Source: an uncultured Verrucomicrobiae bacterium
Lineage (GTDB): Bacteria > Verrucomicrobiota > Verrucomicrobiia > Chthoniobacterales > UBA10450
DNA: 64,000 bases
Direction: 5' to 3'
Assembly (NCBI GenBank): GCA_963726745.1
Contig: CAVSDR010000006.1
Span: forward strand, 832,001-896,000
Position numbers and translations under genes: made by a program. The notes under the pieces are model-generated. The model had not been told where the DNA came from, did no database searches, and saw nothing but the letters and a program-made list of their open reading frames with translations. How positions within the stretch are numbered: the stretch's first letter is position 1; every line of letters begins with the position of its first letter. Shown one piece after another: positions 37,829 through 54,220 of the stretch.

Positions 37829-40800
37829 TTAGTGGAAGTCGTGCGACTCGCTCCCGCGGAAGCTGGCCTGCGCCAGCGGCTCGATCGTGCGCGCCTTGAT
37901 CAGGATGACGTTGTCGTTGTTCTGCACCTCGCCGGTGATCCGCAGGAACGGCTCCTCCGTGATTAGCAGCCGCAGCTTCTCGAAGAGGTCGGGCGTCACG
38001 ATCGCATTCGAGACGCCGGTCTCGTCTTCCAGGCTGATGAAGACAAAACCTTTCGCCGTCCCGGGCCGCTGGCGGCAAATAACGTTGCCGGCGATCTCCA
38101 CCGTCGCTCCATGCCGGGCCTGGATCAGATCGCTGGCGCGCCAGGCGTTCGGCAGGTCTGCCCGGAGCAATTTCATCGGGTGCGGACCAGTCGTTAGGCT
38201 CATGGTTTCGTAATCCGCCTGCACCCGTTCCGGCATGGTCATGGGCAGGAGCGGCGATTCTTCCTTCTTTGCGCGGCCGCGCCGGCGCTGGGCGAAGAGC
38301 GGCGCCGGCGGTTGCTCCTCCACTTCCCAGAGCGCGTTCCGGCGATGGTCGCTAAAGCAGTTGAGCGCGCCGACGAGCGCGAGCGTGCGCAAGGTCTCCT
38401 GCGGCAGCGGAAGTCGCTGTCTAAAATCCTCCAGCGACTCAAAGGCCGCGGTTTCCCGTTGCCGCACGAGGGCGACCACGTGCTCCTCTCGCAGGCCGCG
38501 GACCACGCAAAAGCCCAGGCGAATCGTCTCGTGGTCGATCACCTGGCAGCCCCAGCCAGAATCGCGCACGGAAACAGGCAGCACTTTCAACCCGTGCCGG
38601 ACGGCGTCTTTCACGATCGTGGCCGGCGAGTAAAAACCCATCGGCTGGTTGTTGATCAGGCTGGCGTAAAACTCCGCCGCGCGATGCACCTTCAAGTAGG
38701 CGCTGCCGTAGGCGAGGATGGCGAAGCTGATCGCGTGCGACTCCGGGAAGCCGTAAAGCGCAAAGGAGGTGATCGATTGCAGGATGCGCTCGATCGCTTC
38801 CGGCGCGACCTGGTTCCGCTCCATCGCGCGCCGCAGCTTGACGCTGACTTTGTTCATCCGCTCCTGCGAACGGTGGAAGCTGAGCGCGCGCCGCAGCTCC
38901 TCTGCTTCCTCGCCGGAGAAGTTCGCCATGATCATCGCGATCTTAAGCAACTGCTCCTGGAAGAGCGGCACGCCGAGGGTGCGGCCGAGGATCGGCTTGA
39001 GGCGGTCGTCAAAATAAGTCACCGGCTCCTTGCCCGCGCGCCGCGCGAGATACGGATGGACCATGTCGCCCTGGATCGGGCCCGGTCGAATAATCGCGAC
39101 CTCGATCACGACATCGTAGAAACACTTCGGCTTCATCCGCGGGAGCGTGGCCATCTGCGCGCGGCTCTCGATCTGGAAAACGCCGATCGTGTCCGCCTGC
39201 TGCATGATCGCGAACGTCTGCGCGTCATCCTTCGGGATGTGCGCCAGGTCGAGCGGCCGCCCGCGTTCCCGGCAAAGCTCGAAGGCATCCTGCATCACCG
39301 CCATCATCCCCAGGCCTAACAAGTCCACCTTCACGATCCCGAGGTCCTCGCAGTCGTCCTTGTCCCACTGCGCGACCACGCGCCCGGGCATGGAGGCATT
39401 CTCCAGCGGGACGAACGAACTCAGCTTTCCCTGGCAGATGATCATCCCGCCGGAGTGCTGCCCGAGATGGCGCGGCAGGCCGTAGATCGATTCGTAGAGC
39501 CGGACGAACGCCGGCATCCGCGGATGCGCCTTCGGCAAACCGGCCTGCTCGATCTGCGCGGTCAGGTCGAGGGTGTGCGGGAAGTCGCCATTCGCGAAAA
39601 GGTGCGAGAAACGCTCGAGGATGCCGGGCGAAAAATTGAGCGCTTTCCCGATCTCGCGCGCTGCGCTCCGGCCGCGGTAGCTGATCACGTTCGCGGTCAT
39701 GGCCGCGCCGTGTTTCCCATAGCGCCGGTAAACTTCCTGGATCACGCGCTCGCGCCGGTCGCCACTCGGCAGATCGAGATCGATGTCCGGCCAGCCTTTG
39801 CGGCTCTCGTTCAGGAAACGCTCGAAGACGAGGTGATTCGAGACCGGATCGACCGGGGTAATCCCGAGGCAATAGCAGACCGCGCTGTTGGCCGCGCTCC
39901 CGCGCCCCTGGACCATGATCCCCTGCTCGCGACAGAAATTGACGATGTCCCAGACGATCAGGAAATAGCCGGAGAACCCGAGCTTCGCGATCAGCGCGAG
40001 CTCTTCGTTGATCTTCTCCTTCACCGCGCGGCTCATCGCCTCGTAACGCTGCTGCGCGCCGAAAAGCGTGATCGTGCGCAGGAAGGAATCCATGTCGTGC
40101 CCCGCCGGCACGGGGAACTGCGGGAACTCGTAGCCGATGTTCTCGAGCGAGAATTGCAGCCGGTCGGCTAAACGCTCGGTGTTCGTGATCGCCTCCGGCA
40201 AATCGCGAAAGAGCGCACGCATTTCCCGGTCGCTCTTCAGATGGCGCTCGGCATTTTGCGTGAGCAAGGTGCCGGCCGCGTCGAGGTGCGTATGCGCGCG
40301 CATGCAGGTGAAAACATCCAGCGCCTCGCGTCCGCGCGCGGTGGCGTATTGCACGCCATTGGTGGCGAGGAGCGGGAGGCGGAACTGCCCCGCGAGATCG
40401 CGGAGCGCGCGGTTTCTCCGCTCTTCGCCGCGCACGAAATGCCGCTGCAGCTCCACGTAGACATTCTCCTGGCCTAACGAGTCGATGAGCCGCTGGGCGT
40501 AGCCTGCCGAGCGCTTGGGGAGCGCAGGCTGCCAGCCTGCTGGCCGCGGCAGCTTGCCGCGACCGCGGAGTGGTAGCCCCCACCGAGAGCGCTGGTTTAT
40601 CTTCCCGTGTTTCCGGCAGGCTGCCGGAAACGGCAGGCTGGCAGCCTGCGCTCCCCGGATTCCCCAGCAAGGCCACCAATCCGTCGGCAAATTCCCGGAG
40701 CTCGCTCCAGCGCACCGCGCACTCGCCTTTCACCTCGCTCCGAAGATGCGCCTCGGTCAGGAGTGAACAGAGATTCCCGTAGCCGGCCTTGGATTTCACC

Positions 40801-41033
40801 AGCACCGGAAGCACGCTCCCGTCTTCCATGCTCAGCTCCGCGCCGACGATCGCGCGCGTCCCCTGCTCGCGCGCTGCGACCGCTGCGCGCTGCGAACCGT
40901 AAACGCCGTTGCGATCGAGCACGGCCAGCGCCGGCATCTCCAGCTGGGCAGCGGTCTCCGCGAGTTGCTCGGGAAAGGAAGCGCCGCGCAGGAAGCTGAA
41001 GGCGCTGCAGGCGTGGAGTTCGACGTAAGCCAT
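37829..41033 (-). CDS. dnaE2: error-prone DNA polymerase DnaE2/ImuC; contains a palindromic insertion and one frameshift near 40580
   Basis: ELHACSAFSFLRG PHP start, GRGSAANS, PDIDLD, PRHLGQHSGG, FQIESRAQ, YGFPESHA, RQRPGTAKG, C-terminal SHDFH. Confidence 0.93.
40517..40656. repeat. REP/MITE-like palindromic element inside dnaE2
   Basis: Perfect 24-bp terminal inverted repeats ggggagcgcaggctgccagcctgc / gcaggctggcagcctgcgctcccc, plus internal hairpins gcggcagcttgccgc and tttccggcaggctgccggaaa. Confidence 0.85.
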
Positions 41034-41049: not shown

Positions 41050-41970
41050 TTAGTCGTAGATCCCGTCGACTTGCCACTGCCCGGCTTCCTCGTGCACCCG
41101 TGCGAGCGCCCCGCTGGCCAGTTGCACATCCCACTCCGCGCGCGCCCAGGCAGCCGTGTCCCACCATTGACCGGAAGCGTGATATGGCCCCTTCCGCTCG
41201 ACCACTTCGCGCAATGCCGGCGCCGCGCCGTGACGAAAACGCCGGAGCACTGGGCCGCTCCCATCTTGCTGGCTAATTTCCCGCGCCTCCGGCAACTCCC
41301 AGCGAAACGCCTCCATCCGGAAAACATCCGGCCGATGCGTATCCTCCAGCACCGGCGTGCCGACGCGTTCCGCGCCGAGCAATCCGGCGAGCCGCGCGAG
41401 CGTCTCCGAAAGCTGCGCTGGGTCGCGCAGCGCGCTTTCGAAAAGGCTGAACTGCTGCCGCACCGGCCGCGTGGGCTGCGCTTCCAGCGCGACCGCGACG
41501 ATCGCCGACTCCGAGGTGAAACCCTCGAGGTGCGCCTGGAGCATGCGGAAGAGCGACTCCTCATCGTTGCTCGGCTGCGGGATTTTAAACAGCCGCTCGT
41601 AGCTCGTCCGATCGTCAAAAAGGAGCCGCAGTTTCAACTCCGCGACCACGAGATATTGCGCGCCCAGCCGCAGCGCGAATTGCTGCAGGAAACGCCGGAG
41701 CATGAAGAGCAGCGGCTCGCTCGTGGAGACCTCGTGCTCGAACTCGAAGCTCTCCGCGAAGACTTCCGGCGGCTCCACCAGGCGGAGCAAACGCGTCGCC
41801 TGGCCGCGGGCCCGTTCCCACATCCGCACCGCCTCCGCGCCCAGGCGTGCGCTCACCTCGGCCCGCGGCAGCCGGGCAAAATCGCCTAACGAATGGAGGC
41901 CCCACTGGTGCAGGAGCGCGATCACCCGGCGAATTTCCGCCGCCCGTTCCGCCTCCTGCTTCGCCGTCAT
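41050..41970 (-). CDS. imuB: ImuB (Y-family polymerase-like) C-terminal half as a stand-alone ORF
   Basis: LLHQWGLHSLGDFARLP thumb/HhH motif, EPLLFMLRR, QFSLF clamp-binding-like motif, GPYHASGQWW, WQVDGIYD; directly upstream of dnaE2. Confidence 0.85.
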   Translation of the reverse strand: MTAKQEAERAAEIRRVIALLHQWGLHSLGDFARLPRAEVSARLGAEAVRMWERARGQATRLLRLVEPPEVFAESFEFEHEVSTSEPLLFMLRRFLQQFALRLGAQYLVVAELKLRLLFDDRTSYERLFKIPQPSNDEESLFRMLQAHLEGFTSESAIVAVALEAQPTRPVRQQFSLFESALRDPAQLSETLARLAGLLGAERVGTPVLEDTHRPDVFRMEAFRWELPEAREISQQDGSGPVLRRFRHGAAPALREVVERKGPYHASGQWWDTAAWARAEWDVQLASGALARVHEEAGQWQVDGIYD

Positions 41971-43928
41971 TGCTTGCGCGCGGCCAGCAGGCGCGCCTTC
42001 GCTTCCGCGGAAAGCGAGGAGCTGTTGATCCAGGCCGCGGCCCGGTTGGCATCCGTGCGCATCCAGGCCGCGGCCAGCGATTCGATCTGGTTGTTGCGCG
42101 TCCCTTCATTACCGATCGTCTCGGCCCATTGCGTGGCGGTCGCGGGATCGGTCGAGACCACGCGCTGCGTGTAGGCCAGGACCGCAGCGTCGCGCGAGGC
42201 GCCGCCGGGCAGGGTCGCCAACCAGGCGCCGGCAGCGTAGGGATCGCTCTGGGCCCAGCGGCTCATCAAGCTTTCAAAGGCTTTGGTGCGCGCCTTCCCC
42301 TCGGCAAAAGTCGCCGCCCAGCGGCTGGCCGCCTGCGGATCGTCGCCGGCCCACTGCCAGGCGATGGTGCCGCTGGCCGCGGTCTGCGCCTCGGCGCTCA
42401 TTTGTGGGATCAATTTCGCGGCTTCGCGCGGATCGGTTTCGGCCACGGAAGCGATCAAGCTCGGAAGCACGGCTTCGCGCGCGGCGGGATCAGTGAGCGT
42501 GGTGGCCCAGCGCAGCGCGGCCTGCGAATCGCTCCGGGCCCACTGGCGGGCGACGTTTTCGAGCAGGCCGTTGCGGCCCTCGGTTTTGCTCGTGCGGAGC
42601 GCAAAATCCGCCGCCGCCTGCGGGTCGGCATCGCTCCATTGGCTGATGATATTAGACAGCGCATTCTGTCGCGCAGTGCCTGCGGGAAGTTTCTGCGCCC
42701 AGGCGACGGCGCTTTGGATATCGCTGTTGGCCAGTTGCCCGGCGACCGCGGCGGTGGCTTCGTCCTGCGTCTTGCCCGCAGGCAGGCTGGCGACATAATC
42801 CGCCGCCGCGGCCGGCTCCGCCTGCACCCAACTGGTGAGGGCAAAACGGAGCGCATTGCGCTGGCCATCGCCCGCAGGAAGCTGCTCGGCCCAGGCGAGC
42901 GCCGCGCGCGCATCGGTCAAGGCCCATTGACGCGCGATGTTGCCCACGGAGGCGTCGCGCACGCTGCCGCCTGGGAGCTCGTTGACCAGCGCGGCCGCGC
43001 GCTGCGGATCCTTGTTCGCCCAGCTCGAGAGAATATTTTGCAGCGCATTGTTCCGGCCTTGGCCTGGCGGAAGCGTGTTCGCCCAGGCGAAAGCGGCCTC
43101 GGCATCCTGGTTGGCCCAATTCGAACCGACCACCTGGATGGCAGCGTCACGGCTGGAACCGGCCGGCAATTGCGTGGCCCGTTCGGCCGCCACCACCGGA
43201 TCAAGCGAGGTCCACTTGCTGAAGATGGGCCAGTAAAGATTCTGCCGGGTGCGCCCGGCCGGGAGCGTCTGGAGGAAATTGAGCGCGCTTTGCGGATCCT
43301 TATCCGCCAGCGCGGAGACGATGGTTTGCATCGCCTGATCGCGCGCCGGGCCCGGCGGAAGTTGCTGCGCCCAAGTGGTCGCGGCCGCGGGATCGTGCTC
43401 CGACCAACCGGAGACGGCGCTTGTGATCGCCCAATTGCGCGAGGTCCCGGGCGTGAGCCCTTGCGCGTAAGCCACCGCAGCTGCGGGATCGAATTCCGCC
43501 CAGCGACCGATGACGAGCGAAACGAGCATGTTTTTATCCTGCGGTTTCTGGAGGCTTTCCACGAAGCCGAGCACTTCGCGCAAATTCTGCGGGCTGATGC
43601 TGTCGGCTAATTTGCTGAAGGTCGCGAAAGTGCGGCGGCTATTTGGCCGGCCAAGCGCGGTCTTCATGCGCGCGACGATGCTGGCCGCGGAAGGGGCGTC
43701 GCCGCTGGTTTCGGCTTCGGCCGCATCCGGGGTCTCCGGCGCGACTGTCGGCTGCGGCGGGGCCACGGGGTGCGGGGTGGAAGTTTTGCCAGCAGCCACG
43801 CTCGCCGTCTTCGGCCCGGCTGCGACCGAGGGCGAAGGCGCCGCGGTGTAACGGCCAAGGATCAAGCCGAGCACAAGCGCCGGAAGCGCAAAGAGACTCG
43901 GGAGAAGGAAACGCTTCACGTCATTCAT
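41967..43928 (-). CDS. membrane-anchored alpha-solenoid protein with about 16 tandem 32-aa repeats
   Basis: N-terminal TM helix, Pro/Ala linker, repeat consensus W...DP.AA..WA..LP.G..R..A. Confidence 0.88.
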   Translation of the reverse strand: MNDVKRFLLPSLFALPALVLGLILGRYTAAPSPSVAAGPKTASVAAGKTSTPHPVAPPQPTVAPETPDAAEAETSGDAPSAASIVARMKTALGRPNSRRTFATFSKLADSISPQNLREVLGFVESLQKPQDKNMLVSLVIGRWAEFDPAAAVAYAQGLTPGTSRNWAITSAVSGWSEHDPAAATTWAQQLPPGPARDQAMQTIVSALADKDPQSALNFLQTLPAGRTRQNLYWPIFSKWTSLDPVVAAERATQLPAGSSRDAAIQVVGSNWANQDAEAAFAWANTLPPGQGRNNALQNILSSWANKDPQRAAALVNELPGGSVRDASVGNIARQWALTDARAALAWAEQLPAGDGQRNALRFALTSWVQAEPAAAADYVASLPAGKTQDEATAAVAGQLANSDIQSAVAWAQKLPAGTARQNALSNIISQWSDADPQAAADFALRTSKTEGRNGLLENVARQWARSDSQAALRWATTLTDPAAREAVLPSLIASVAETDPREAAKLIPQMSAEAQTAASGTIAWQWAGDDPQAASRWAATFAEGKARTKAFESLMSRWAQSDPYAAGAWLATLPGGASRDAAVLAYTQRVVSTDPATATQWAETIGNEGTRNNQIESLAAAWMRTDANRAAAWINSSSLSAEAKARLLAARKQ

Positions 43929-43947
43929 ATAGGCAGGGGGTTGGATA

Positions 43948-43961
43948 TGTTCAAGTGATCG
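43948..43961. promoter_or_regulatory. putative LexA box (2 mismatches) upstream of the repeat protein-imuB(C)-dnaE2 operon
   Basis: TGTTC-AAGT-GATCG, 20-33 bp upstream of ATG 43928; shares 14 identical bp with the imuA box. Confidence 0.6.
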
Positions 43962-44030
43962 TATGCAAGTCCGACGATCAAAGGACGAAAGTAAGACACC
44001 CTTCCCAAGCCATCGGTTCAGCCGAGGCGC

Positions 44031-46013
44031 CTAGATCACCTTCACTGGACAAGCCGGGAGCGCTTTCAAGAACGCCCGGCCATACGGCTTGGTCACGATC
44101 CGGTTGTCTAAAATAACCACGATGCCCTTGTCGCTCCGCGTGCGAATGAGGCGTCCGACACCTTGCCGCAATTTTAGGATCGCCTCCGGGAGCGAGTATT
44201 CGCTAAAGGCGTCGCCGCCGCGTTCCTGGATCAACTCCAGCTTCGCTTCGATGAGCGGATGATCCGGAACCGCGAAGGGCAGGCGCGTGATGATCACATT
44301 CGAGAGCGCCTCGCCGGGCACATCCACGCCCATCCAAAAACTGTCCGTGCCGAAGAGCACGCTGCGCTCGGTGGTCTTGAAAAGCTCGAGCAATTTCCCC
44401 CGCGGCGCGCCCTGGCCCTGCACGAAAAGATTCATCTTCCGGCTGGCAAAGAAGGGCTGCATCTCGTCGGCTAATTGCTGCATCCCGCGGTAGCTGGTGA
44501 AGAGGACGAAGGCGCGGCCATCGGTTTCCTCGACGAAGCGGCCGACCCATTCCGCGAGCGCGCCGGTGTAAGCGGCGTCGCGCGGATCGGGCATCTTCTG
44601 CACGAGGAAGAGCTTCATCTGCTCCTCGAAATCGAACGGGCTTCCAAGCTGGAGCGCGGTCGCCTCCATCGCGCCCACGCGCCGGCGGAAATAGGCGAGA
44701 TCTTTCTGTCCCACGGCGAGGGTCGCGCTGGTCATGATCGTGCAACACCCATCGCGGAAAAGCATCCGCTGCAGGACTGGCGCGATGTCAATCGGCGCGG
44801 CATTCAGCGAGATGAACTGCGCCGCTTTCCCGGTGCGTTCGACCCAGTAGACGTGGCCGTATTCGCTCTGCTCGAGGAAGGCGGTGATGTCGAGGCGCGC
44901 GCCGCTCACGCGCCGGCCGAGTTCCTGGAGCTCGGCCTTGAGGAACTCGTCCTCGGTTCGCTTGACCACGTCCATGATCCGGACCTGGAGCGCGGCCAGG
45001 CGCGGGCTGATCGTATCCGGGACAAACTCTGGCGCGCGCACGCGCACTTCGCGGCCTTTCCGGAACTCCGCGCGCGTCCCCACGGCCTCGAAGAATTTCT
45101 CCAAGTCGTCGGCTAATTCCGCAGCCAGGGTCACGCCGGCGGCATCGCGCGTGACCGTGAAAAGGCCTTTGCGCGTGCGCGCATTGTAGAGCCGCTGCAC
45201 GGTCGAACGCAGGCCGTATTGCGACACCGAAAGCCCGATCTGGCGCGAGGCAATCTGCTCGACGGTGTGCGCTTCGTCGAAGATCAGGAAATCATTCGGG
45301 AAAAGGTAACCGCTCTCGCGCTCCTCCTGTTCCTCGAGGCTGCCGAGGAGCATGAAGAGGAGCGTGTGATTGACCACGATCACATCCGCGGTCTGGAGGC
45401 GTTTGCGCGCTTGCTGGAAGAAACAGTTCGAGTTGAGGCCGCAAGTTTTGGCGGTGCAGATGTGCGCCTCGCTGCAAACCTGCGCCCAGACTTTCGGGTC
45501 GGGCTCGATCGCGAGATCGCTCAGTGACCCATCGCTGGTGCGCGCGGCCCATTCCGCCAGGCGGACCAATTCCGTTTGCTCGCTCGTGGTGAAAAGCTCG
45601 CCGGCCTGCTGCAGCGCTCGCTCCAGCCGGCGCGGGCAAAGGTAATTTTGCCGGCCCTTCATCAGCGCGGCTTCAAACTCAATCGGCAGGATCTTCTTCA
45701 GGATTGGGATGTCCTTGTAGAGGAGCTGCTCCTGAAGATTGATCGTGTGCGTGGAGATGACGGCTTTCATCGTCTGCTCCTTCGCGTGCAGGATTGCCGG
45801 GACGAGGTAGGCCATCGATTTGCCGACACCGGTGCCGGCCTCGACCACCAGGTGCCGTTCTTCCTCGAGGGCGTGGGCGACGGCCACCGCCATGTCCTGT
45901 TGCTCGGCGCGATATTCGAAATTCTTCGCTTTCGCCAGGAGGCCATCGTGCGCAAAAATACCGCGCACGCGCTCAACGAAGTCGCTCCCGAGATGCTCCC
46001 GGAGGGCGATCAT
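44031..46013 (-). CDS. ATP-dependent DNA helicase, DinG/YoaA family
   Basis: EAGTGVGKS, KGRQNYLC plus Fe-S Cys cluster, VVNH, DEAH, TSATL, LFTSY, FWMGVDVPG, QGVGRLIR. Confidence 0.92.
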   Translation of the reverse strand: MIALREHLGSDFVERVRGIFAHDGLLAKAKNFEYRAEQQDMAVAVAHALEEERHLVVEAGTGVGKSMAYLVPAILHAKEQTMKAVISTHTINLQEQLLYKDIPILKKILPIEFEAALMKGRQNYLCPRRLERALQQAGELFTTSEQTELVRLAEWAARTSDGSLSDLAIEPDPKVWAQVCSEAHICTAKTCGLNSNCFFQQARKRLQTADVIVVNHTLLFMLLGSLEEQEERESGYLFPNDFLIFDEAHTVEQIASRQIGLSVSQYGLRSTVQRLYNARTRKGLFTVTRDAAGVTLAAELADDLEKFFEAVGTRAEFRKGREVRVRAPEFVPDTISPRLAALQVRIMDVVKRTEDEFLKAELQELGRRVSGARLDITAFLEQSEYGHVYWVERTGKAAQFISLNAAPIDIAPVLQRMLFRDGCCTIMTSATLAVGQKDLAYFRRRVGAMEATALQLGSPFDFEEQMKLFLVQKMPDPRDAAYTGALAEWVGRFVEETDGRAFVLFTSYRGMQQLADEMQPFFASRKMNLFVQGQGAPRGKLLELFKTTERSVLFGTDSFWMGVDVPGEALSNVIITRLPFAVPDHPLIEAKLELIQERGGDAFSEYSLPEAILKLRQGVGRLIRTRSDKGIVVILDNRIVTKPYGRAFLKALPACPVKVI

Positions 46014-46091
46014 GAGATTTGCACTTTGCGGTCGACCATGGAGCCGTGATCTTAAGCCGCTTATCGCCTTCCGACATTCGCAATTTCGCCT

Positions 46092-47237
46092 GTGAGACTG
46101 CTCGATTTTTATGTGCTGCGGAATTTTCTCCGGGCGTACTTTTATTGCATCGCAGCCTTTCTCGCGGTCTGGCTGGTCTTCGACATCAGCGACAAGATTT
46201 CCACCTTCCTGGACGAAAGTGTCTCGGTGATCTCGGTGGCGCACTACTACCTCACGCAGGCTCCGGAAATCATTGTCATTGTCCTGCCGATTGCGCTCCT
46301 GCTGGCGCTCCTTTTTTCCCTTAGCCGAATGTCGCGCTCGAATGAGATCGTCTCGATGCTCACCGCCGGGATCAGCATCCCGCGCTTGCTGGTGCCGCTG
46401 TTCGCGGCCGGCCTGGCCACGACTGCGCTCAGTGCCGCGCTAAATTTTGCCCTCTCGCCGCACGCCGAGCAGGCGCGCAAGGCCTACTTCGAGGAGATGC
46501 GCGACGAGTCGCGCGGCGCGATGGCGATGGGCCAGATTTTTCGCAATCGCTCGGGCAATCGCACCTGGTTTATCCAGCGCTTTAACGCGACCACCAACGA
46601 GTTTGTCACCCTGCAAGTCCTGCAGCAGGACGCCAACGACAACATCGTCACAAATTACCTCGCGACCTCGGCGACCTATGAACCGGCCGCCCGCGCCTGG
46701 CAGCTGCGCGGCGTGAAAGTGGTGCACTACGACGCGGAGGGAAACATCGCCGGCGAAGAGAATCGCGCCCAACTGCTGGTGCACGACTGGGACGAAACCC
46801 CTTTCCGGCTCGCCAGCTCGAACATGCGCGCAGAATACCTGAGCGTGCCCGAGCTGCGCGATTACCTGCGCTACAATGCCGACTTCCCGCGCACCCTGCT
46901 CGCGCCCTTCGCCACCCACCTGCACTATCGGCTGGCACTTCCGCTGACCTGTTTGATTGTGGTCCTGATCGCGTCGCCGCTCGCGATCGGCTTCTCACGC
47001 AAGGGCGTCCTCTCGAGCGTGGCTGCGGCCATCGGGCTGATTTTCTTCATGAACTTCCTCACGCATTTCTTTCTCGCGCTGGGCGAAGGCGCGCGTATCG
47101 CCCCGTGGGCCGCCGCTTGGACGCCGAACCTCCTGTTTGCGATCGTTGGCGTGATTTTGCTTTATCTACGCTCGAGTAATCGCGAAGCGCGGGAGCTCTT
47201 CTCCGTGCGCGCATCTCCGCATCCGGCACGCGCATGA
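46092..47237 (+). CDS. LptF/LptG family LPS export permease
   Basis: LDFYVLRNF, LP.ALL...L..MSRSNEI..M..AGIS, AAWTPN; 3+3 TM layout. Confidence 0.9.
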   Translation: MRLLDFYVLRNFLRAYFYCIAAFLAVWLVFDISDKISTFLDESVSVISVAHYYLTQAPEIIVIVLPIALLLALLFSLSRMSRSNEIVSMLTAGISIPRLLVPLFAAGLATTALSAALNFALSPHAEQARKAYFEEMRDESRGAMAMGQIFRNRSGNRTWFIQRFNATTNEFVTLQVLQQDANDNIVTNYLATSATYEPAARAWQLRGVKVVHYDAEGNIAGEENRAQLLVHDWDETPFRLASSNMRAEYLSVPELRDYLRYNADFPRTLLAPFATHLHYRLALPLTCLIVVLIASPLAIGFSRKGVLSSVAAAIGLIFFMNFLTHFFLALGEGARIAPWAAAWTPNLLFAIVGVILLYLRSSNREARELFSVRASPHPARA

Positions 47238-47734
47238 ATCCGCTGGCAAACGACTGGCCGATCAAACACCGCGCAGAAGTTTGCGCAGCCACCGGCCGCC
47301 CGTTCGAGCCGGGCGAACTATTTTACACGCTCCTTTTCCGCGAAGGTGCGGGCTATCGCCGCGAAGACTTGAGCGAGGAAGGCTGGGCCGCGCGCAACGA
47401 AAACATCCGCCCGTTTTCGTTTTGGAAAACCCGCTACGAGCCGCCACCCGCGGTCCCGCCGGAACCGCTGGCCAAAGAGAACGCCGAGGAGCTGCTCCGT
47501 CGCCTCCTGGGCGAGAGCGCGCAGCCGAATGCCTGCTACGTGCTCGCGGCCATGCTCGAGCGGAAACGCATCCTGAAGCCGATCAAGACCGAGCCGGCGG
47601 ACAACGGCCGCCGGGTGCTCATTTACGAACACGCCAAAACCGGCGAAGTCTTCCTGGTCCCGGATGTGGAGCTTAAGCTCGACGAGCTCGAAGCGGTCCA
47701 GAGCGAGGTCGCGCAACTCATGCAGGCGGTCTAA
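47234..47734 (+). CDS. conserved hypothetical protein
   Basis: ATGA overlap with the upstream gene; C..TGRPF, R.D.S.E.W, SFWKT, YVLAAMLERKRILK. Confidence 0.75.
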   Translation: MNPLANDWPIKHRAEVCAATGRPFEPGELFYTLLFREGAGYRREDLSEEGWAARNENIRPFSFWKTRYEPPPAVPPEPLAKENAEELLRRLLGESAQPNACYVLAAMLERKRILKPIKTEPADNGRRVLIYEHAKTGEVFLVPDVELKLDELEAVQSEVAQLMQAV

Positions 47735-47743
47735 CGAATCGAA

Positions 47744-48745
47744 ATGCACTCCTTGCTGCCATGGTTCGCCGGCGGGCACTTCCCGCTTTACCTCGCCCCC
47801 ATGGCCGGGATCTCGGATAAAATTTTCCGCCAGCTTTGCAAGGAATACGGCGCCGACGTTCTTGTGACCGAGTTTGTTTCTTCGGAAGGCGTCTTCCGGC
47901 GGAACGAGCGCACGCGCGAGTATCTCGACTTCGACGAGGTCGAGCGTCCGCTCGGCGTCCAGCTTTTCGGCGCCAATCCCGAGCACATGGCCGAAGCCGC
48001 GCGGCAGGTGATCGACTGGGTGCGGCCCGATTTCATCGACCTGAACTTTGGCTGCCCGGTTAACAAAGTGGTGTCTAAAAATGGCGGGAGCGCGCTGCTC
48101 AAGGATTGCCCCACGCTTGCCGCCGTGGCCAGCGCCGTCGTGCGCGCGGCGGCGCCCATGCCTGTGACCGCGAAGATCCGCATCGGCTGGGACGCGCAAT
48201 CGGTCAACGCCGCAGGCGTCGCGCGCATCCTGGAGGATCTCGGGATTGCCGCGATCGCGGTCCACGGCCGCACGCGCGCGCAGGGTTACTCCGGCGAGGC
48301 GGATTGGAAAGTCATCGGCGAAGTCGCCGAAGCCGTGCGCGTGCCGGTGATCGGCAACGGCGACATCACCTGCGCCGAGGATGTCCTGCGTCGACGCGCA
48401 GAGACGAAAGTAGCCGGCGTGATGATCGGCCGCGCGGCCATGTGTGCGCCGTGGATTTTCCAGCAGATCAAACGCGAATTCGCCGCTGGCGGTCCGCTGC
48501 CCGCGCCCGAGCTGACCGAGCGCTGGGAGGTGATCGCGCGCCATTGCCGTTTGGTGGTCGAGGATTGGCAAAACGAAGACGCCGCCATGCGCTCGATGCG
48601 CGCGCGCTTGATGGCTTATTCAAAGGGCTTTCCCGCGAGCAAAGCGCTGCGCGAGAAATTCCAGCACATCACTCGTCTCGCCGAGCTCGACGCGATCGCA
48701 CAGGAGCACATCGCGACGCACGCTGCGGTGGCCGTCTTGCCCTAG
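47744..48745 (+). CDS. dusB: tRNA-dihydrouridine synthase B
   Basis: LAPMAG, DLNFGCP, KIRIGWD, VHGRT, IGNGDI, GVMIGR. Confidence 0.92.
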   Translation: MHSLLPWFAGGHFPLYLAPMAGISDKIFRQLCKEYGADVLVTEFVSSEGVFRRNERTREYLDFDEVERPLGVQLFGANPEHMAEAARQVIDWVRPDFIDLNFGCPVNKVVSKNGGSALLKDCPTLAAVASAVVRAAAPMPVTAKIRIGWDAQSVNAAGVARILEDLGIAAIAVHGRTRAQGYSGEADWKVIGEVAEAVRVPVIGNGDITCAEDVLRRRAETKVAGVMIGRAAMCAPWIFQQIKREFAAGGPLPAPELTERWEVIARHCRLVVEDWQNEDAAMRSMRARLMAYSKGFPASKALREKFQHITRLAELDAIAQEHIATHAAVAVLP

Positions 48746-48770
48746 GGGCGTGCGCCCGTTACCTTCCCCC

Positions 48771-49151
48771 GTGTCTGCGACTGCGACCCCGCCCACCGGC
48801 CTTAACTACAAGATCGGCAACGAACGCCTGATCAAGGTGACGGAAAACGCTGCCCGGAAACTCCTCGGCCTCCTGCAGAAACAAGGCCGCCCGCAGGGCG
48901 CCCTGCGCGTTGCCGTCATCGGCGGCGGCTGCTCCGGATTGCAATACAAGATGGACCTGGTCGATGGCCCGCTGAATCGCGACATCATGGTCCAATCCGC
49001 CGAGGTGCGCGTGGTGGTCGATCCGAAGAGCGCGCTTTTTGTCAGCGGCTCGCTGCTCGACTTTAGCGACGACCTGCAGAAGGGCGGCTTCAAAGTCACG
49101 AATCCGAACGCGGTCGCGCATTGCTCCTGCGGCGAAAGCTTCGCGGCATGA
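48771..49151 (+). CDS. Fe-S cluster assembly accessory protein (IscA/ErpA/HesB)
   Basis: GGGCSGLQY, NPNA..CSCGESF; start uncertain (GTG 48750 or 48771). Confidence 0.9.
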   Translation: MSATATPPTGLNYKIGNERLIKVTENAARKLLGLLQKQGRPQGALRVAVIGGGCSGLQYKMDLVDGPLNRDIMVQSAEVRVVVDPKSALFVSGSLLDFSDDLQKGGFKVTNPNAVAHCSCGESFAA

Positions 49152-49700
49152 CCGATTACTTCGCGCTGCTCTCGCAGCCGCGCGGCCCGTGGCTCGATCC
49201 GGAGGAATTGAAGGAAGGCTTTCCATGCGCGTAGCCGGCAACTTCATCCCGACGTGAGTGGGAAGGCGGGCGAATTCGCGGAGGTGAACGAAGCCTACCA
49301 GGTGCTGCGCGAACCAAAGCGCCGCTTGCAGCATTTGCTTGCGCTCGAAGATGCCGAGCCGCCGCGCGCTGCCGCGGTCCCGAGGGAAATTGCCGACCTC
49401 TTCCCGCGCGTGGCCACGCTGATGCACGCCGCCGCAGCCGCGCTCGAGCAGCGCGCCCGCGCGGGCAACGCGCTTAACATCTCGCTGGCTAAAACGGCGG
49501 CGCTGCAGACCGGCGGCGAGATTGCCGCGCAACTCGAACAACTCCGCGCGCAGCAAGCCGCCGCGTTGGAGGAGTTGCGCCAGCGAAGCCATGGCTGGGA
49601 GGCACAGCTCCCGGCGTTGCAGCAGCTCTACCTTGCGCTCTCCTACCTCACACGCTGGATCGCGGAGCTGGAGGAAAAAGCGCTCCAACTCGCGAATTAG
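49148..49700 (+). CDS. HscB-like J-domain co-chaperone; frameshift near 49218
   Basis: MTDYFALLSQPR.PWLD.EELKE, then next frame FHARSRQLHPD...VNEAYQVL..P..RL.HLL. Confidence 0.75.
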
Positions 49701-49706
49701 CCAGCA

Positions 49707-49720
49707 CGTTCATTTGAACT
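49707..49720. promoter_or_regulatory. putative LexA box upstream of lexA
   Basis: CGTTC-ATTT-GAACT, 2 mismatches to TGTTC-N4-GAACA. Confidence 0.55.
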
Positions 49721-49753
49721 TGCAGCACTCGTTATTCTCCGCATAATTCCGCC

Positions 49754-50392
49754 GTGCTCACCGAACGCCAGCAAGACGTGCTCGGCTTCATCCAGTCCGA
49801 ACAACGCGAACGCGGTTTCACCCCCAGCACGCGCGAAATCCAGAAGCATTTCGGCTTCGCCAGCCAGACGTCGGTCATGCAATACCTCGACGTCCTGCAG
49901 CGGAAAGGCTTTCTCGATCGCCACGCGCGCAAGGCCCGCGCCTTGATCACGCCGGTCTCGAAGGTGCGCATCACGGACATCCCGATCTACGGCCAGATTC
50001 CCGCGGGCATGGCCACGGCCACGGAGGAGGCGATCGAGGGACACATCTCGCTCGATGCGCGCACGGCCAATACTTCGAAAAACAGCCGCACGTTCGCGCT
50101 CCGCGTGCGCGGCGATTCCATGATCGAGGCGCATATTTTAGACGGCGACTTGGTCATCCTCGAGGACCGGAAGGAAGTGCAGAATGGCGACATCGTGGCG
50201 GCCTTGATCGATGGGGAGACGACCTTGAAGCGCTACGTGGTCGATCACGGCCGCCCGTATTTGAAGGCGGAGAATCCGCTCTACCCGGACCTCGTGCCGG
50301 CGCGGGAGTTGCGCATCCAGGGCGTGATGGTCTCGCTGGTGCGCCAGCAGGCCGCGCCGCAGCGGGCCGCGCGGCGCAAAAGCGCTGGCTAA
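49754..50392 (+). CDS. lexA: SOS repressor LexA
   Basis: LTERQ..VL.FI, P.TREI wHTH, IPAG cleavage site, RVRGDSM and TTLKR catalytic Ser/Lys. Confidence 0.95.
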   Translation: MLTERQQDVLGFIQSEQRERGFTPSTREIQKHFGFASQTSVMQYLDVLQRKGFLDRHARKARALITPVSKVRITDIPIYGQIPAGMATATEEAIEGHISLDARTANTSKNSRTFALRVRGDSMIEAHILDGDLVILEDRKEVQNGDIVAALIDGETTLKRYVVDHGRPYLKAENPLYPDLVPARELRIQGVMVSLVRQQAAPQRAARRKSAG

Positions 50393-50485
50393 TTTTCGCG
50401 GGCCGGCCGTTGGACTGCTGGCGTGCATCCGTGGCGGTTCGCCGCGCTTAATCGAAACGCTTTTATACTCTCCAGCCAGGCGATG

Positions 50486-50499
50486 TGTTCACTTGAACA
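50486..50499. promoter_or_regulatory. LexA box (Verrucomicrobia-type consensus)
   Basis: Perfect TGTTC-ACTT-GAACA upstream of imuA. Confidence 0.85.
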
Positions 50500-50526
50500 T
50501 ATTCGCTCGCAATGCCACGCTGGTTC

Positions 50527-51168
50527 ATGCCGGCGAGCAGCAGCAAAATCATCGACCTGCGGAAGCTGCTCGCGGAGCGCTATCCGCAGACGCAGATCGC
50601 GCCGGCCGCGCGTTTGCTCACTGGCATTCCTCCGCTCGATGAAGCCGGCGGCTTGCCGAAGGGCGCGATTACGGAATTAACCAGCCCGCACGAGAGCGCC
50701 GGGAGCGCGCGTCTCCTGCACACCCTGCTTCGCCGCGCGCAGCGGGAACGCGAGTTCGTGGCCTTGATCGACGGGCGCGATTCCTTCGATCCGCAGCCGC
50801 TGGGAAATGAGTGTCTGCGCCACCTTCTCTGGGTCCGCTGCACCACTGCGCTCGCGGCCGTGAAAGCCGCCGACCTGCTCCTGCGCGACGGCAATTTCCC
50901 GCTCGTGATCCTCGACCTGGTGCTGAACAGCGCCGAGGAGCTGCGCAAGATTCCGCAGACCAGCTGGTATCGGCTGCAACGCCTGGCCGAGCCGCTCTCG
51001 CTCGCTTTTCTCGTGCTCACGCGCCGGAGCGTGATCAGCAGCGCGCAGGTGAAGTTGACCCTCGAGCATCGCTGGCAATTGGCGGACATCGATGAGCCAC
51101 GCGATTTCGCCCGCACAAAAATCGAGGTGCAACGCCTGCACCCGCATCGGCTGGAGGCTGTCGGCTAA
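50527..51168 (+). CDS. imuA: ImuA (RecA-fold mutasome accessory protein)
   Basis: TGIPPLD...GGLPKGAITEL with degenerate Walker A, ALIDGRDSFDP, LLWVRC, ADLLLRDGNF, W.RLQR. Confidence 0.88.
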   Translation: MPASSSKIIDLRKLLAERYPQTQIAPAARLLTGIPPLDEAGGLPKGAITELTSPHESAGSARLLHTLLRRAQREREFVALIDGRDSFDPQPLGNECLRHLLWVRCTTALAAVKAADLLLRDGNFPLVILDLVLNSAEELRKIPQTSWYRLQRLAEPLSLAFLVLTRRSVISSAQVKLTLEHRWQLADIDEPRDFARTKIEVQRLHPHRLEAVG

Positions 51169-51169
51169 A

Positions 51170-51694
51170 ATGCTTTTCGCCACCCTTTATCTCCCGAACT
51201 TTTTCCTCCAGGCCGCGCTCCGCCATCAGCCGGAGCTGGCTGGCCACGCCGTCGCCTTGATCGATGAGCGCGACGCGAAACCCACTTTCTTGCAGGTCAA
51301 CGCGGAGGCGGCCGCGGCCGAGGTGCGCTGCGGGATGACGCCCAGCCAGGGGCTCGCGCGCTACCTGCCGCTGGTGGTAAAAGGGCGCCTGCTCGAGCAG
51401 GAGAAAATGCTGGCTGATTTGCTCCTGCAGTTCGCCTTTACCCTCTCGCCTTTTGTGGAAGCGACTGCGCCCGGCATCTGCACGGTGCAGGCAAACGAGG
51501 GCGCGGCGCTGCGGGAGAAAGTCGAGCGCGTGCTCGCGCAATTGCAGGCCGCCGGGCTAACCGCGCAGGCCGGGATCGCGCCGACGCCCGACACCAGCTT
51601 TCTCGCGGCCCACCTCGCGAATCCACTCTTGCAGGTCGAGGACGTGACCGAATTCCTCGCGCCGCTTCCGATCGAGACCCTGGCCCAGGGCTGA
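51170..51694 (+). CDS. imuB: ImuB N-terminal half (IMS palm/fingers) as a stand-alone ORF
   Basis: LYLPNFFLQA, VN.EA...V..GMT..Q.LA, FTLSPFVE, QAGIAPTP...LAA; ends FLAPLPIETLAQG*. Confidence 0.85.
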   Translation: MLFATLYLPNFFLQAALRHQPELAGHAVALIDERDAKPTFLQVNAEAAAAEVRCGMTPSQGLARYLPLVVKGRLLEQEKMLADLLLQFAFTLSPFVEATAPGICTVQANEGAALREKVERVLAQLQAAGLTAQAGIAPTPDTSFLAAHLANPLLQVEDVTEFLAPLPIETLAQG

Positions 51695-51696
51695 AC

Positions 51697-54220
51697 TTAG
51701 CCAGCGAGATTCGGATATTTCGCGCGCAACTGCTGCGTGGCGCGAGCCGCTTCAGCCTGGTTGCCGGCTTTTTGATACGCGGCCGCGGCTCGCTGCAAGG
51801 CCCTCGGCGTGATCGCCGGGTCGTCGTAAAGCAAGGACACGCTCATGAAAGTTTTCGCCGCCTCCTCGAAAGCCCCGCGTTCAAACTGCACTTCGCCCGC
51901 GAGGAGGCGAGCTTCCGCGTTCACTTTCCCCTCCGGCTGCAGGCTCATGATTTCCTCGGCAATCCGCTGCGCTTCCTCCGGTTTGTGCGCTGCGATCTTG
52001 GCCGCGCCGAGCGCGATCAAGGTCTTGGCGCGCGCCGCCGGATCGCTCGTCGTTTGCAGGTAGCGTTCGTAAGAGCCTTCGGCATCGCTCACCTTGCCGG
52101 TCTTCATCTGCGCATCGGCCAGGTAGAACCAGAAATCCGCGTTCACATTCGAGCCTTCGTTCGCGCCCAGGGCGCTGAGGTATTTCTCGGCCGCGGCGTA
52201 GTTCTTCTCGTTGTAATAATCCAGCCCGAGCCACTGCAGGATTTCGCCAGGAATCGGCGCTTCGCGGCCGCTGGCGAGGTATTTGTCGACTTCGCTCGTG
52301 AGCGCGGCGCGGTTTTTTTGGTAAAAATAAGCAGAGATGATCCGGACCGTCGCGGGGGTGTAATACTGCTCCGCGTTCAATTTCCGCGCAGCCTCGAGCG
52401 CGGCGATCGCCGGCTTGTAGTCCTTCGCCTCGAAGGCCGCCTTCCCGATGTAATACTGCGCCTGTGCCGCGGCCTCGGTCTTCGGATATTCCTTCAGCAG
52501 CTGCGCAAAAGCGGCCGACATCGCCTTGTCGTTTTCCTGCTGGCCGAGGAGGAGCGCCTTTTGTTGCAGCGCGCCTTCGCGCTCGCGCGCTTTTGGGTAG
52601 CTCTTGATCAAGGTATCGAGGTCGGCGATCGCGGCGTCGAAGTTCTTCGTCTCCTGGTAGGCCAGCGCGCGCTGGGTGAGCGCGCTCGGAGCCTGCGGGT
52701 TGTCGGCAAAAGCCTTCAGGAAATAGCTAAAGGCATCGATAATCCGCAGCGGATTCTTGAGCTGCACGTAACACCAGCCAGCTTTGTAAGCCGACTCTGC
52801 GCGCAGCTTGGCCGAAAGCTGGGAAGCGCGCAGCGTCTCATAGAGCGGCGCGGCCTCGGCGAAATTTCCCTGGCGATAAAGCGCCTCGGCTTTCAAGAGC
52901 CGCGCCTGGTCGGCCCGTTCGCCGCTCGAGTTGCTGGCTAAATACTCGTCCACCTGCGCGACCACCGCCGCGGGATCGGCGTTGTAGACATTGATCAAGC
53001 GCTGGTAACGCGCGTCCTTCGCTTCTTCGCGCGCAGGGATATTTCTCGATGATCTGGGCGTAGAGTGCCTCCGCTTCCGGGCCGTGGCCGAGCTGGCGCT
53101 GGCTGTTCGCTGCGTAGAGCATCATCTCCGCGCGGGCGTCGTCTGGCAGGTCGTCGCCCGCGCGTTTCCATTCCGTGAGCACCTGCTGGAATTGCCCGCC
53201 GGAATAGAGCACCCGGAGGAGGCCGGTGGCCGCGAGCCCGCGCCATTTCCCGGCCTCGGCTAACGAGCGGCCTTTTTGCAAGAGCGCGACTGCTTTTTCC
53301 GAGAGCGCTTTGTTGCCCTTCTCGCCTTGCGCGAGGTCGGCCGCAATCAAGCCGGCGCGCACGGTCGCCTCGGCTTTCAAAGCGGCCTTGCCGGTTTCGT
53401 TTGCCAGCGCCTCGTATTGCTTCAGCGCCTCCGCTTTGCGCCCGCGATTGAAAAGGATCGAGGCCGCGGCGGAGCGCGAGTCTTCGCGGAAAGGATTCGG
53501 GTCCTTCGCCTCGATCACCTGCAGGTAAGCGGTCGCGGCTTCATCCTTGCGATCGAGATTTTCCAGCGAACGCGCCTCGAAATAGCGCGCCGACAAGGCC
53601 AGGCCGGGCTCCTTCGTCTTCGCTGCCGAGCGATGAAATTGCGCCAGCGCGCCGGCGTAATCTTTCTGGTTAAAAAGAATCTCGCCCACGCCATAGGCCG
53701 CCGGCCCGGCAAACTCACTCTCGGAAAAATCAGCCAGCACACTCTGGAAAGCAGTCCGCGCCGGCGCGGTGCGGTTCTGCGCGCGGTAGGCTTCGGCGAG
53801 GTAAAAGAACGCGCTCGCGCGGCCGGACGCATTCGGGAATTGGCCGAGGAACTTCTCGTATTCCGGAATTGCGAGATCGTAGAGCTTGCGATTGAAGAGC
53901 GCGTTCGCGTAATCGAGCTGGCGCTGGTCGGCCGCCTCCGGTTCCGGCCCTTCGCTCGCCGCGGGCTCGCTCCGCGGCGTAGCCGGCTCCTCGGGCGCGG
54001 GCACCGGAGTGGAGCGCGGAGTGGGCGCGGGCGTAGCCACCGGCAACGGGGTGGCCGCCTTGCGCGGGGTCGACTCCTCCACCGGAAGCGCGCGGCGCAC
54101 GGGCGGCTCGTTCACCGGCTGGGCCCGGCGAATTTCCGGGGCCGCCTGCGCCTGCCCCCAGGCACTCGTTAGGCAAAACGCCCACGCGAGCACGCCCAGG
54201 GCGCTCGTGCGCCAGTTCAT
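51697..54220 (-). CDS. periplasmic TPR-repeat protein with Pro-rich N-terminal linker; frameshift near 53035
   Basis: Signal peptide, Pro/Thr/Ala-rich segment, many TPR motifs over two consecutive frames. Confidence 0.85.

Follow-up and report, generated by a model that had tools for sequence, protein, structure and literature searches.

Two genes for one ImuB

The 64,000-nucleotide stretch of DNA analysed here (the window) comes from an uncultured Verrucomicrobiae bacterium (Chthoniobacterales, UBA10450; assembly GCA_963726745.1, contig CAVSDR010000006.1, positions 832,001 to 896,000), and our subject is its imuB, which encodes the scaffold protein belonging to the ImuA-ImuB-DnaE2 mutasome. 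A first-pass annotation had proposed that imuB is divided here into two separate genes on opposite strands. When the open reading frames (ORFs) were checked, both were found as described: a frame of 174 amino acids (aa) that follows imuA and ends in FLAPLPIETLAQG before its stop codon, and a frame of 306 aa before dnaE2 that carries LLHQWGLHSLGDFARLP and QFSLF. We call them the N half (imuBN) and the C half (imuBC).

51170..51694, plus strand: imuB N half, 174 aa; catalytically dead Y-family polymerase palm and fingers with the first thumb helix (FLAPLPIETL)
41050..41970, minus strand: imuB C half, 306 aa; N-terminal extension (a short new helix), remaining thumb, little finger
within 41050..41970, minus strand: distal part of the C half; clamp-type motif QFSLF, then a putative RecA-NT region and an ImuB-C domain that ends in DGIYD

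Residues 7-146 of the N half match Pfam IMS (PF00817, E 1.7e-7), with no NCBIfam match for this half, and the C half is a weak match to IMS_C (PF11799, E 0.0016, 19.3 bits, below the cut-off of 20.7). The expectation that the halves together make up one ImuB without overlap held against the intact ImuB P0006, of which they cover residues 6-179 and 184-492, except that approximately four residues of a proline-rich turn are missing. Identity of the halves to an intact ImuB is 46-48%. At the start of the C half, ~13 residues show no homology to intact ImuB. The ImuB core lacks the catalytic acidic residues, FATIYLPNF and P[FY]VEAT[AG] replacing the acidic motifs of DinB. The clamp-type motif stands after the little finger; its strict pattern Q[FL][GSN]LF occurs in 49 of 73 C halves, and Q173, F174 and F177 are invariant in 66 aligned C halves, clamp binding being predicted. 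The putative RecA-NT and ImuB-C region, assigned by position after PMC6511836 and PMC12926913 and not by profile, is conserved and collinear with intact ImuB up to the C-terminal DGIYD. As the first-pass annotation required, a tblastn search across the 3.4-Mb, 7-contig genome gave no other imuB and no full-length one: there were weak matches only, the next best being an intact DinB.

Both halves are genes with their own start and stop. The N half begins with ATG in all 75 genomes compared and measures 172-199 aa in 74 of them, and for the C half a start codon lies no more than 15 codons from where it is expected in 72 of the 75. Neutral evolution of the halves, which would have spoken against a functional split, was not seen. 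Ratios of non-synonymous to synonymous substitution (dN/dS; Nei-Gojobori, same-genus pairs with dS 0.05-1.5) had medians of 0.145 for the N half (133 of 177 pairs, maximum 0.26) and 0.149 for the C half (125 of 161, maximum 0.29), compared with 0.184 for imuA, 0.085 for dnaE2 and 0.039 for lexA in the same kind of comparison. This result indicates that both halves are under purifying selection. The ratio of N to C tree length is 0.92 for split and 1.14 for intact proteins; therefore selection on the N half has not slackened compared with the C half.

The chance that the split arose in assembly, or that the halves are two pseudogenes in decay, appears negligible. There are at least two other frame breaks nearby in this assembly (in dnaE2 and in a TPR gene), and none of the 24 contig pieces (100-250 nucleotides (nt), out of 274) that were looked at spans either junction. 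Three DNA sequencing runs contained just 6-9% of the words searched for, and no RNA run was among those listed. At the level of the family, however, the artefact is refuted by the same cut in ~140 genomes, dN/dS of ~0.15 and the conserved boxes described below. Mis-assembly, which the first-pass annotation named as a ground for refutation, is opposed in an indirect way: dozens of other assemblies show this cut together with this gene order.

The host family, within the Chthoniobacterales, comprises 355 genomes, and its named relatives include Ca. Udaeobacter. Family tallies include up to seven unpublished genomes (G002, G007, G014, G136, G150, G430 and G445), on none of which the box, dN/dS, alignment and tree results rest. 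A strong N-half match was found in 142 of 151 family genomes, six more having a match at DinB level only and three none, and the stop-to-stop frames of the matches are at most 352 aa. The C half was found in 134 of the 151 and, by profile search, in 139 of the 146 family genomes at least 90% complete. Frames in the latter search do not exceed 421 aa, which leaves no room for a full ImuB.

The first-pass annotation called for a search of the Chthoniobacterales for the same split point. In an order-wide sample of 251 genomes, all 31 other family members match; the family matches listed there cover only ~6-180 or ~180-492 of intact ImuB. In other families of this sample 98 of 219 genomes match, with single matches among those listed (34 matches of other families lie outside these). 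All 20 outgroup loci are collinear imuA-imuB(-dnaE2) with one imuB ORF of 478-534 aa, and in a phylum sample of 301 genomes the 25 non-family matches are all in frames of at least 488 aa. The best 80 N-half loci are mostly from Chthoniobacterales, Spartobacteria, Verrucomicrobia and Ca. Udaeobacter, with two under other names. Candidate splits outside the family (12 regions with partial or double matches, from 10 order-level genomes) turned out to be contig edges, single frames, second intact copies and one in-place frameshift (G253). A case for joint loss was likewise rejected: neither half nor dnaE2 is present in G075, G089 and G052, but these genomes also miss dus, dinG and the TPR gene, which looks like assembly gaps. 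In G087, dnaE2 sits at a contig edge. A plasmid search gave 11 distant (<60%) records only.

In a quick IQ-TREE analysis, one branch separated 26 split from 26 intact sequences for both halves, with Shimodaira-Hasegawa approximate likelihood-ratio test (SH-aLRT) values of 99 and 100. The trees fit a single origin of the split, which is likely derived, as it is nested among intact ImuBs.

The cut in the thumb and a model of the pair

The cut falls in the turn between two thumb helices. The N-half profile aligns to residues 17-179 of Pol IV and the C-half profile to 193-275, or to 189-349 of a second Pol IV, which places the cut within the thumb, between Pol IV residues 179 and 193. The consensus of intact ImuB at this place is LP[LVI]xxL-xP[SP]P-xLLxILxxWGI (27 of 40 intact rows fitting the anchor pattern), and the N half terminates in LPIETL and a short tail. 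The cut helix therefore stands at the extreme end of the N half, where F162 and L166 are invariant in 66 aligned sequences and L163, P167, E169 and L171 are kept in at least 90% of them; its C-half counterparts are likewise conserved. In the C half the proline turn is swapped for a conserved [ED]RAAE[IVTL]xxI extension. Ten residues before WG (position -10), a hydrophobic residue stands in 79% of 73 C halves and in none of 27 intact ImuBs, a count that leaves out the 13 of 40 intact rows missing the anchor pattern.

The idea that this N-terminal helix is unique to C halves had to be tempered, because ~5 of 69 intact ImuBs carry insertions of 3-17 residues there, some of them helix-like, in carriers that are not sister to the split clade. 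The turn is therefore a tolerant surface loop. Intact ImuBs with extra residues exactly at the family's cut turn are P0021, P0027, P0035, P0071, P0117 and P0156.

The first-pass annotation had suggested co-folding the halves. A model of the N half with residues 1-180 of the C half scored 0.82, compared with 0.00 for the best of three controls, with a predicted local distance difference test (pLDDT) value of at least 92 for the partners and at least 97% of contacts agreeing between runs. Of 157 solved complexes 116 reached the mark used, as did 2 of 215 mismatched pairs; these counts are only roughly valid for our own alignments. The modelled contacts join N-half residues 163-172 to C-half residues 10-32, and palm residues 74-107 to C-half residues 58-105. 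Conservation of both thumb pieces and this model support assembly in trans, which they make plausible as a prediction.

Gene order, a probable inversion and predicted LexA control

The neighbouring genes and predicted operators are as follows.

49754..50392, plus strand: lexA (TIGR00498, above cut-off)
50512..51168, plus strand: imuA, RecA-like (NF033429, E 4.7e-10, below cut-off)
37829..41033, minus strand: dnaE2, error-prone C-family polymerase (NF004225, above cut-off; frame break near 40515)
41967..43928, minus strand: gene for a 653-aa repeat protein without a named family; stop codon overlapping the ATG of imuBC
44031..49700: housekeeping genes within the inferred inversion; DinG-type helicase (minus), then lptF/G, an ORF of unknown function, dus, iscA-type and hscB-like genes (plus)
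50486..50499: predicted LexA operator before imuA-imuBN, perfect TGTTC-N4-GAACA
49707..49720: predicted LexA operator before lexA, 2 mismatches, same place in relatives
43948..43961, minus strand: predicted LexA operator heading repeat gene-imuBC-dnaE2, CGATCACTTGAACA, 10.9 bits, 2 mismatches

The C half does lie directly before dnaE2, as first annotated, and the unit can be refined here to repeat gene-imuBC-dnaE2, the overlap at the imuBC start reading ATGA at this locus. This order is shared by 57 of 61 genomes, which were picked because both halves lay on one stretch: dnaE2, imuBC, [repeat gene] and dinG on one strand, and lptG, an ORF, [dus], iscA, lexA, imuA and imuBN on the other, followed by a convergent TPR gene where the sequence reaches it. 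Reversing ~41970-51694 would restore lexA-imuA-imuB-dnaE2 on one strand, so that one old inversion is the simplest origin of the split. The gene order of G030 departs from the shared one. In 10 further genomes the halves are 20 kb to 1.3 Mb apart or on separate contigs; therefore closeness of the halves is not needed. The N-half gene is coupled to imuA, with stop/start overlap in many genomes.

It is very unlikely that the halves are rejoined into a single-chain ImuB by programmed re-inversion of DNA, by RNA joining or by protein splicing. The region does rearrange over evolutionary time, most genomes showing the geometry of one inversion and genus g4 a second one. Against rejoining, the inverted pairs (the 25 longest of 236) never have arms on both breakpoints, no recombinase gene was seen among the intervening ORFs scanned, and neither half has an intein match. 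Furthermore, some genomes (G012, G026, G003) have the halves on one strand or separated by as much as 1.3 Mb, and the C half has a conserved new N-terminus and, in 72 of the 75 genomes, a start codon to itself.

The second inversion of genus g4 (G038 L106, G088 L172, G074 L175) has flipped the block from the repeat gene to lexA; its breakpoints adjoin the imuBC and imuA boxes, and lexA thereby stands upstream of imuBC. Rare in-frame imuA-imuBN fusions (G562, L286, a 411-aa frame; P0003-P0005) may be real stop losses or errors. The 653-aa repeat protein, whose gene is missing from this position in several genera, has a hydrophobic N-terminal stretch, and its probable true start is a GTG at 43919. 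The PHP domain of dnaE2 contains a palindromic repeat element (40500-40655) that is also present at other places in this genome. At that site relatives have in-frame inserts that differ in sequence and in length (0 to ~50 aa), which suggests a hotspot for protein-coding repeat insertions. The frame breaks in dnaE2 (~40515) and in the TPR gene (~52840-53000) are probably sequencing indels of this assembly; the TPR gene is one frame of 822-924 aa in 7 of 9 relatives, the other two not matching the pattern.

The claim of two transcription units was supported by predicted LexA boxes before imuA-imuBN and before the C-half unit. We take the palindrome TGTTC-N4-GAACA to be the LexA motif of Verrucomicrobia, a motif reportedly described by Erill et al. 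in 2016. Two-mismatch boxes alone are at chance level in the window (12 found, 15 expected); the box at 43948 is in the same position in all five same-genus relatives with flank. Using a matrix trained on 129 imuA and lexA boxes, we found that 68 of 72 genomes have a box scoring 8 bits or more ahead of the C-half unit (62 of 72 at 12 bits), three of the 75 being left out for short flank, whereas 0 of 357 control regions reached 8 bits. These boxes lie directly before imuBC in 38 cases and before the repeat gene in 30, and in none before both. The repeat gene itself is under a predicted LexA box in ~30 genomes and outside it in others.

The distance from box to start is 27-28 nt for 49 of 71 imuA boxes and 19 of 37 imuBC boxes, which suggests that imuA and imuBC share a promoter design, possibly a leaderless one. 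From the same spacing in relatives, the true start of imuA is probably at 50527. A sigma-70 scan was uninformative (1 site compared with 1.6 expected). Six further high-scoring sites in this genome were checked, two of which precede repair-linked radical S-adenosylmethionine (SAM) genes: LexA-type boxes stand before a PA0069-family radical SAM gene (L305:483-1568) and a uracil-DNA glycosylase (UDG)-linked DNA modification/repair radical SAM gene (L306:327-1586).

Probable assembly in trans and its alternatives

From the sequence comparisons and the co-fold model, we consider it probable that the split ImuB re-forms in trans by completion of the thumb and takes part in a damage-induced mutasome of four subunits, ImuA, ImuB-N, the ImuB C half and DnaE2. 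One inversion in the ancestor of this Chthoniobacterales family would have split imuB, and DNA damage would lead, through LexA cleavage, to derepression of both units. The last helix of the N half (163-172) would dock on the thumb of the C half (10-32), and the N-half palm on the C-half linker from thumb to little finger. By analogy with other species, the clamp motif, RecA-NT and ImuB-C of the C half may engage the clamp, ImuA and DnaE2, the C half acting as hub and the N half as structural partner. Such engagement has been shown or modelled for mycobacterial ImuB (PMC11791113; PMC12926913).

Alternatively, the C half alone could work as a reduced ImuB with ImuA and DnaE2, while the N half has a separate role (e.g. 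together with ImuA, or on DNA) and forms no stable complex with the C half. Reduced ImuBs with thumb, little finger and ImuB-C only are described in PMC12926913, and the partner-binding elements named there all fall in the C half; moreover, the N half stays coupled to imuA, the rare in-frame fusions included, and the interface columns show no extra conservation. Nevertheless, we regard this alternative as unlikely. The C half is without the first thumb helix; this helix survives, its hydrophobic residues invariant, at the end of the N half, and the co-fold model places exactly those residues in the interface. In 50 genomes, whose pairs are not independent, patristic distances of the N half also correlate better with those of the C half (0.80), the values involving dnaE2 or dus being 0.53-0.71.

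The existence of reduced ImuBs weighs against a four-subunit assembly, and so do several of our own results. With FastTree, 72 split rows again grouped apart from 39 intact ones, but the clade was weakly supported (0.82 for N, 0.31 for C), and the neighbourhood expected before the inversion is kept in none of the outgroup loci, so that the inversion is reconstructed from gene order. Three of 75 C halves have no start codon near the expected place, and dnaE2 is frameshifted in this assembly. The genomes for synteny, box and dN/dS analyses were chosen for having both halves, and kin among them are not independent. As for the model, solved single-chain Pol IV is homologous and this likeness may explain the co-fold pass. 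Interface columns were not more conserved than others (entropy 1.27 compared with 1.22, p 0.69, for N; 1.11 compared with 1.13, p 0.58, for C) in a test that is weak, as the comparison columns include the buried core. In G024 (L125), the N half is frameshifted, with 37% identity, and the C half and dnaE2 look intact; decay and sequencing error are both possible there.

Compared with the ImuA-ImuB-DnaE2 mutasome (DnaE2A type; Mycobacterium, Pseudomonas, Myxococcus), the same components are present here, namely imuA, an imuB homologue and dnaE2. The dead core, the clamp-type motif, the ImuB-type C-terminus and the LexA-type boxes are shared with these systems, including the collinear lexA-imuA-imuB-dnaE2 of other Chthoniobacterales. 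Unlike in those systems, ImuB is not one polypeptide from palm to ImuB-C but the product of two genes cut in the thumb. These belong to two predicted transcription units, imuA-imuBN and [repeat gene-]imuBC-dnaE2, which run on opposite strands.

Arrangements with similar names differ from this one. In the mycobacterial 'split cassette' of PMC6511836, dnaE2 is apart from an intact imuA'-imuB. The 'split ImuB' in the passages searched of PMC12926913 refers only to iPolY and the stand-alone ImuB-C of DnaE2X systems, and the same ImuA-less variants (Kyrpidia tusciae type) appear in PMC6511836, where the passages searched do not mention Verrucomicrobia. The DnaE2X type shares with our case an ImuB-like function spread over two polypeptides with DnaE2, but its cut is after RecA-NT between whole domains, it has no ImuA and it is proposed to be ancestral (PMC12926913; PMC6511836), whereas our case has imuA, a cut within the polymerase fold and a split that is likely derived. 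The reduced ('decayed') ImuBs of PMC12926913 have nearly the same domain content as the C half; here, however, palm and fingers are not lost but form a separate gene under equal selection.

In PMC12926913, fragments of <200 residues were dropped, and because of this the 174-aa N half would escape that survey. In its Fig. S22, the accession series of T. terrifontis skips one number between imuA and imuB. Chthoniobacter, Spartobacteria and Udaeobacter gave no match in the portion of its supplement text that was searched. We found no description of this split in the literature searched, which covered few subscription journals. Annotation pipelines will miss or mislabel both halves. Ca. Udaeobacter, a member of the family, is among the commonest soil bacteria.

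It is conceivable, albeit doubtful, that the split is a regulatory device, with ImuB-N as a detachable activator made from the imuA promoter and the polymerase licensed only upon thumb complementation. On that speculative reading, the C half and DnaE2 would come from a separate LexA operator, weaker in some genera, and the arrangement might be a gene-level counterpart of UmuD' activating Pol V.

Whatever its use, a gene cut within a domain has become fixed throughout a large family, and it has acquired a new start as well as a second SOS-type operator, the latter having moved between two positions. The known jobs of ImuB map to its C-terminal part. A separate 174-aa gene for the dead polymerase core, under equal selection, argues that the core has a function, and the family thereby offers a natural, separable reagent for testing it.

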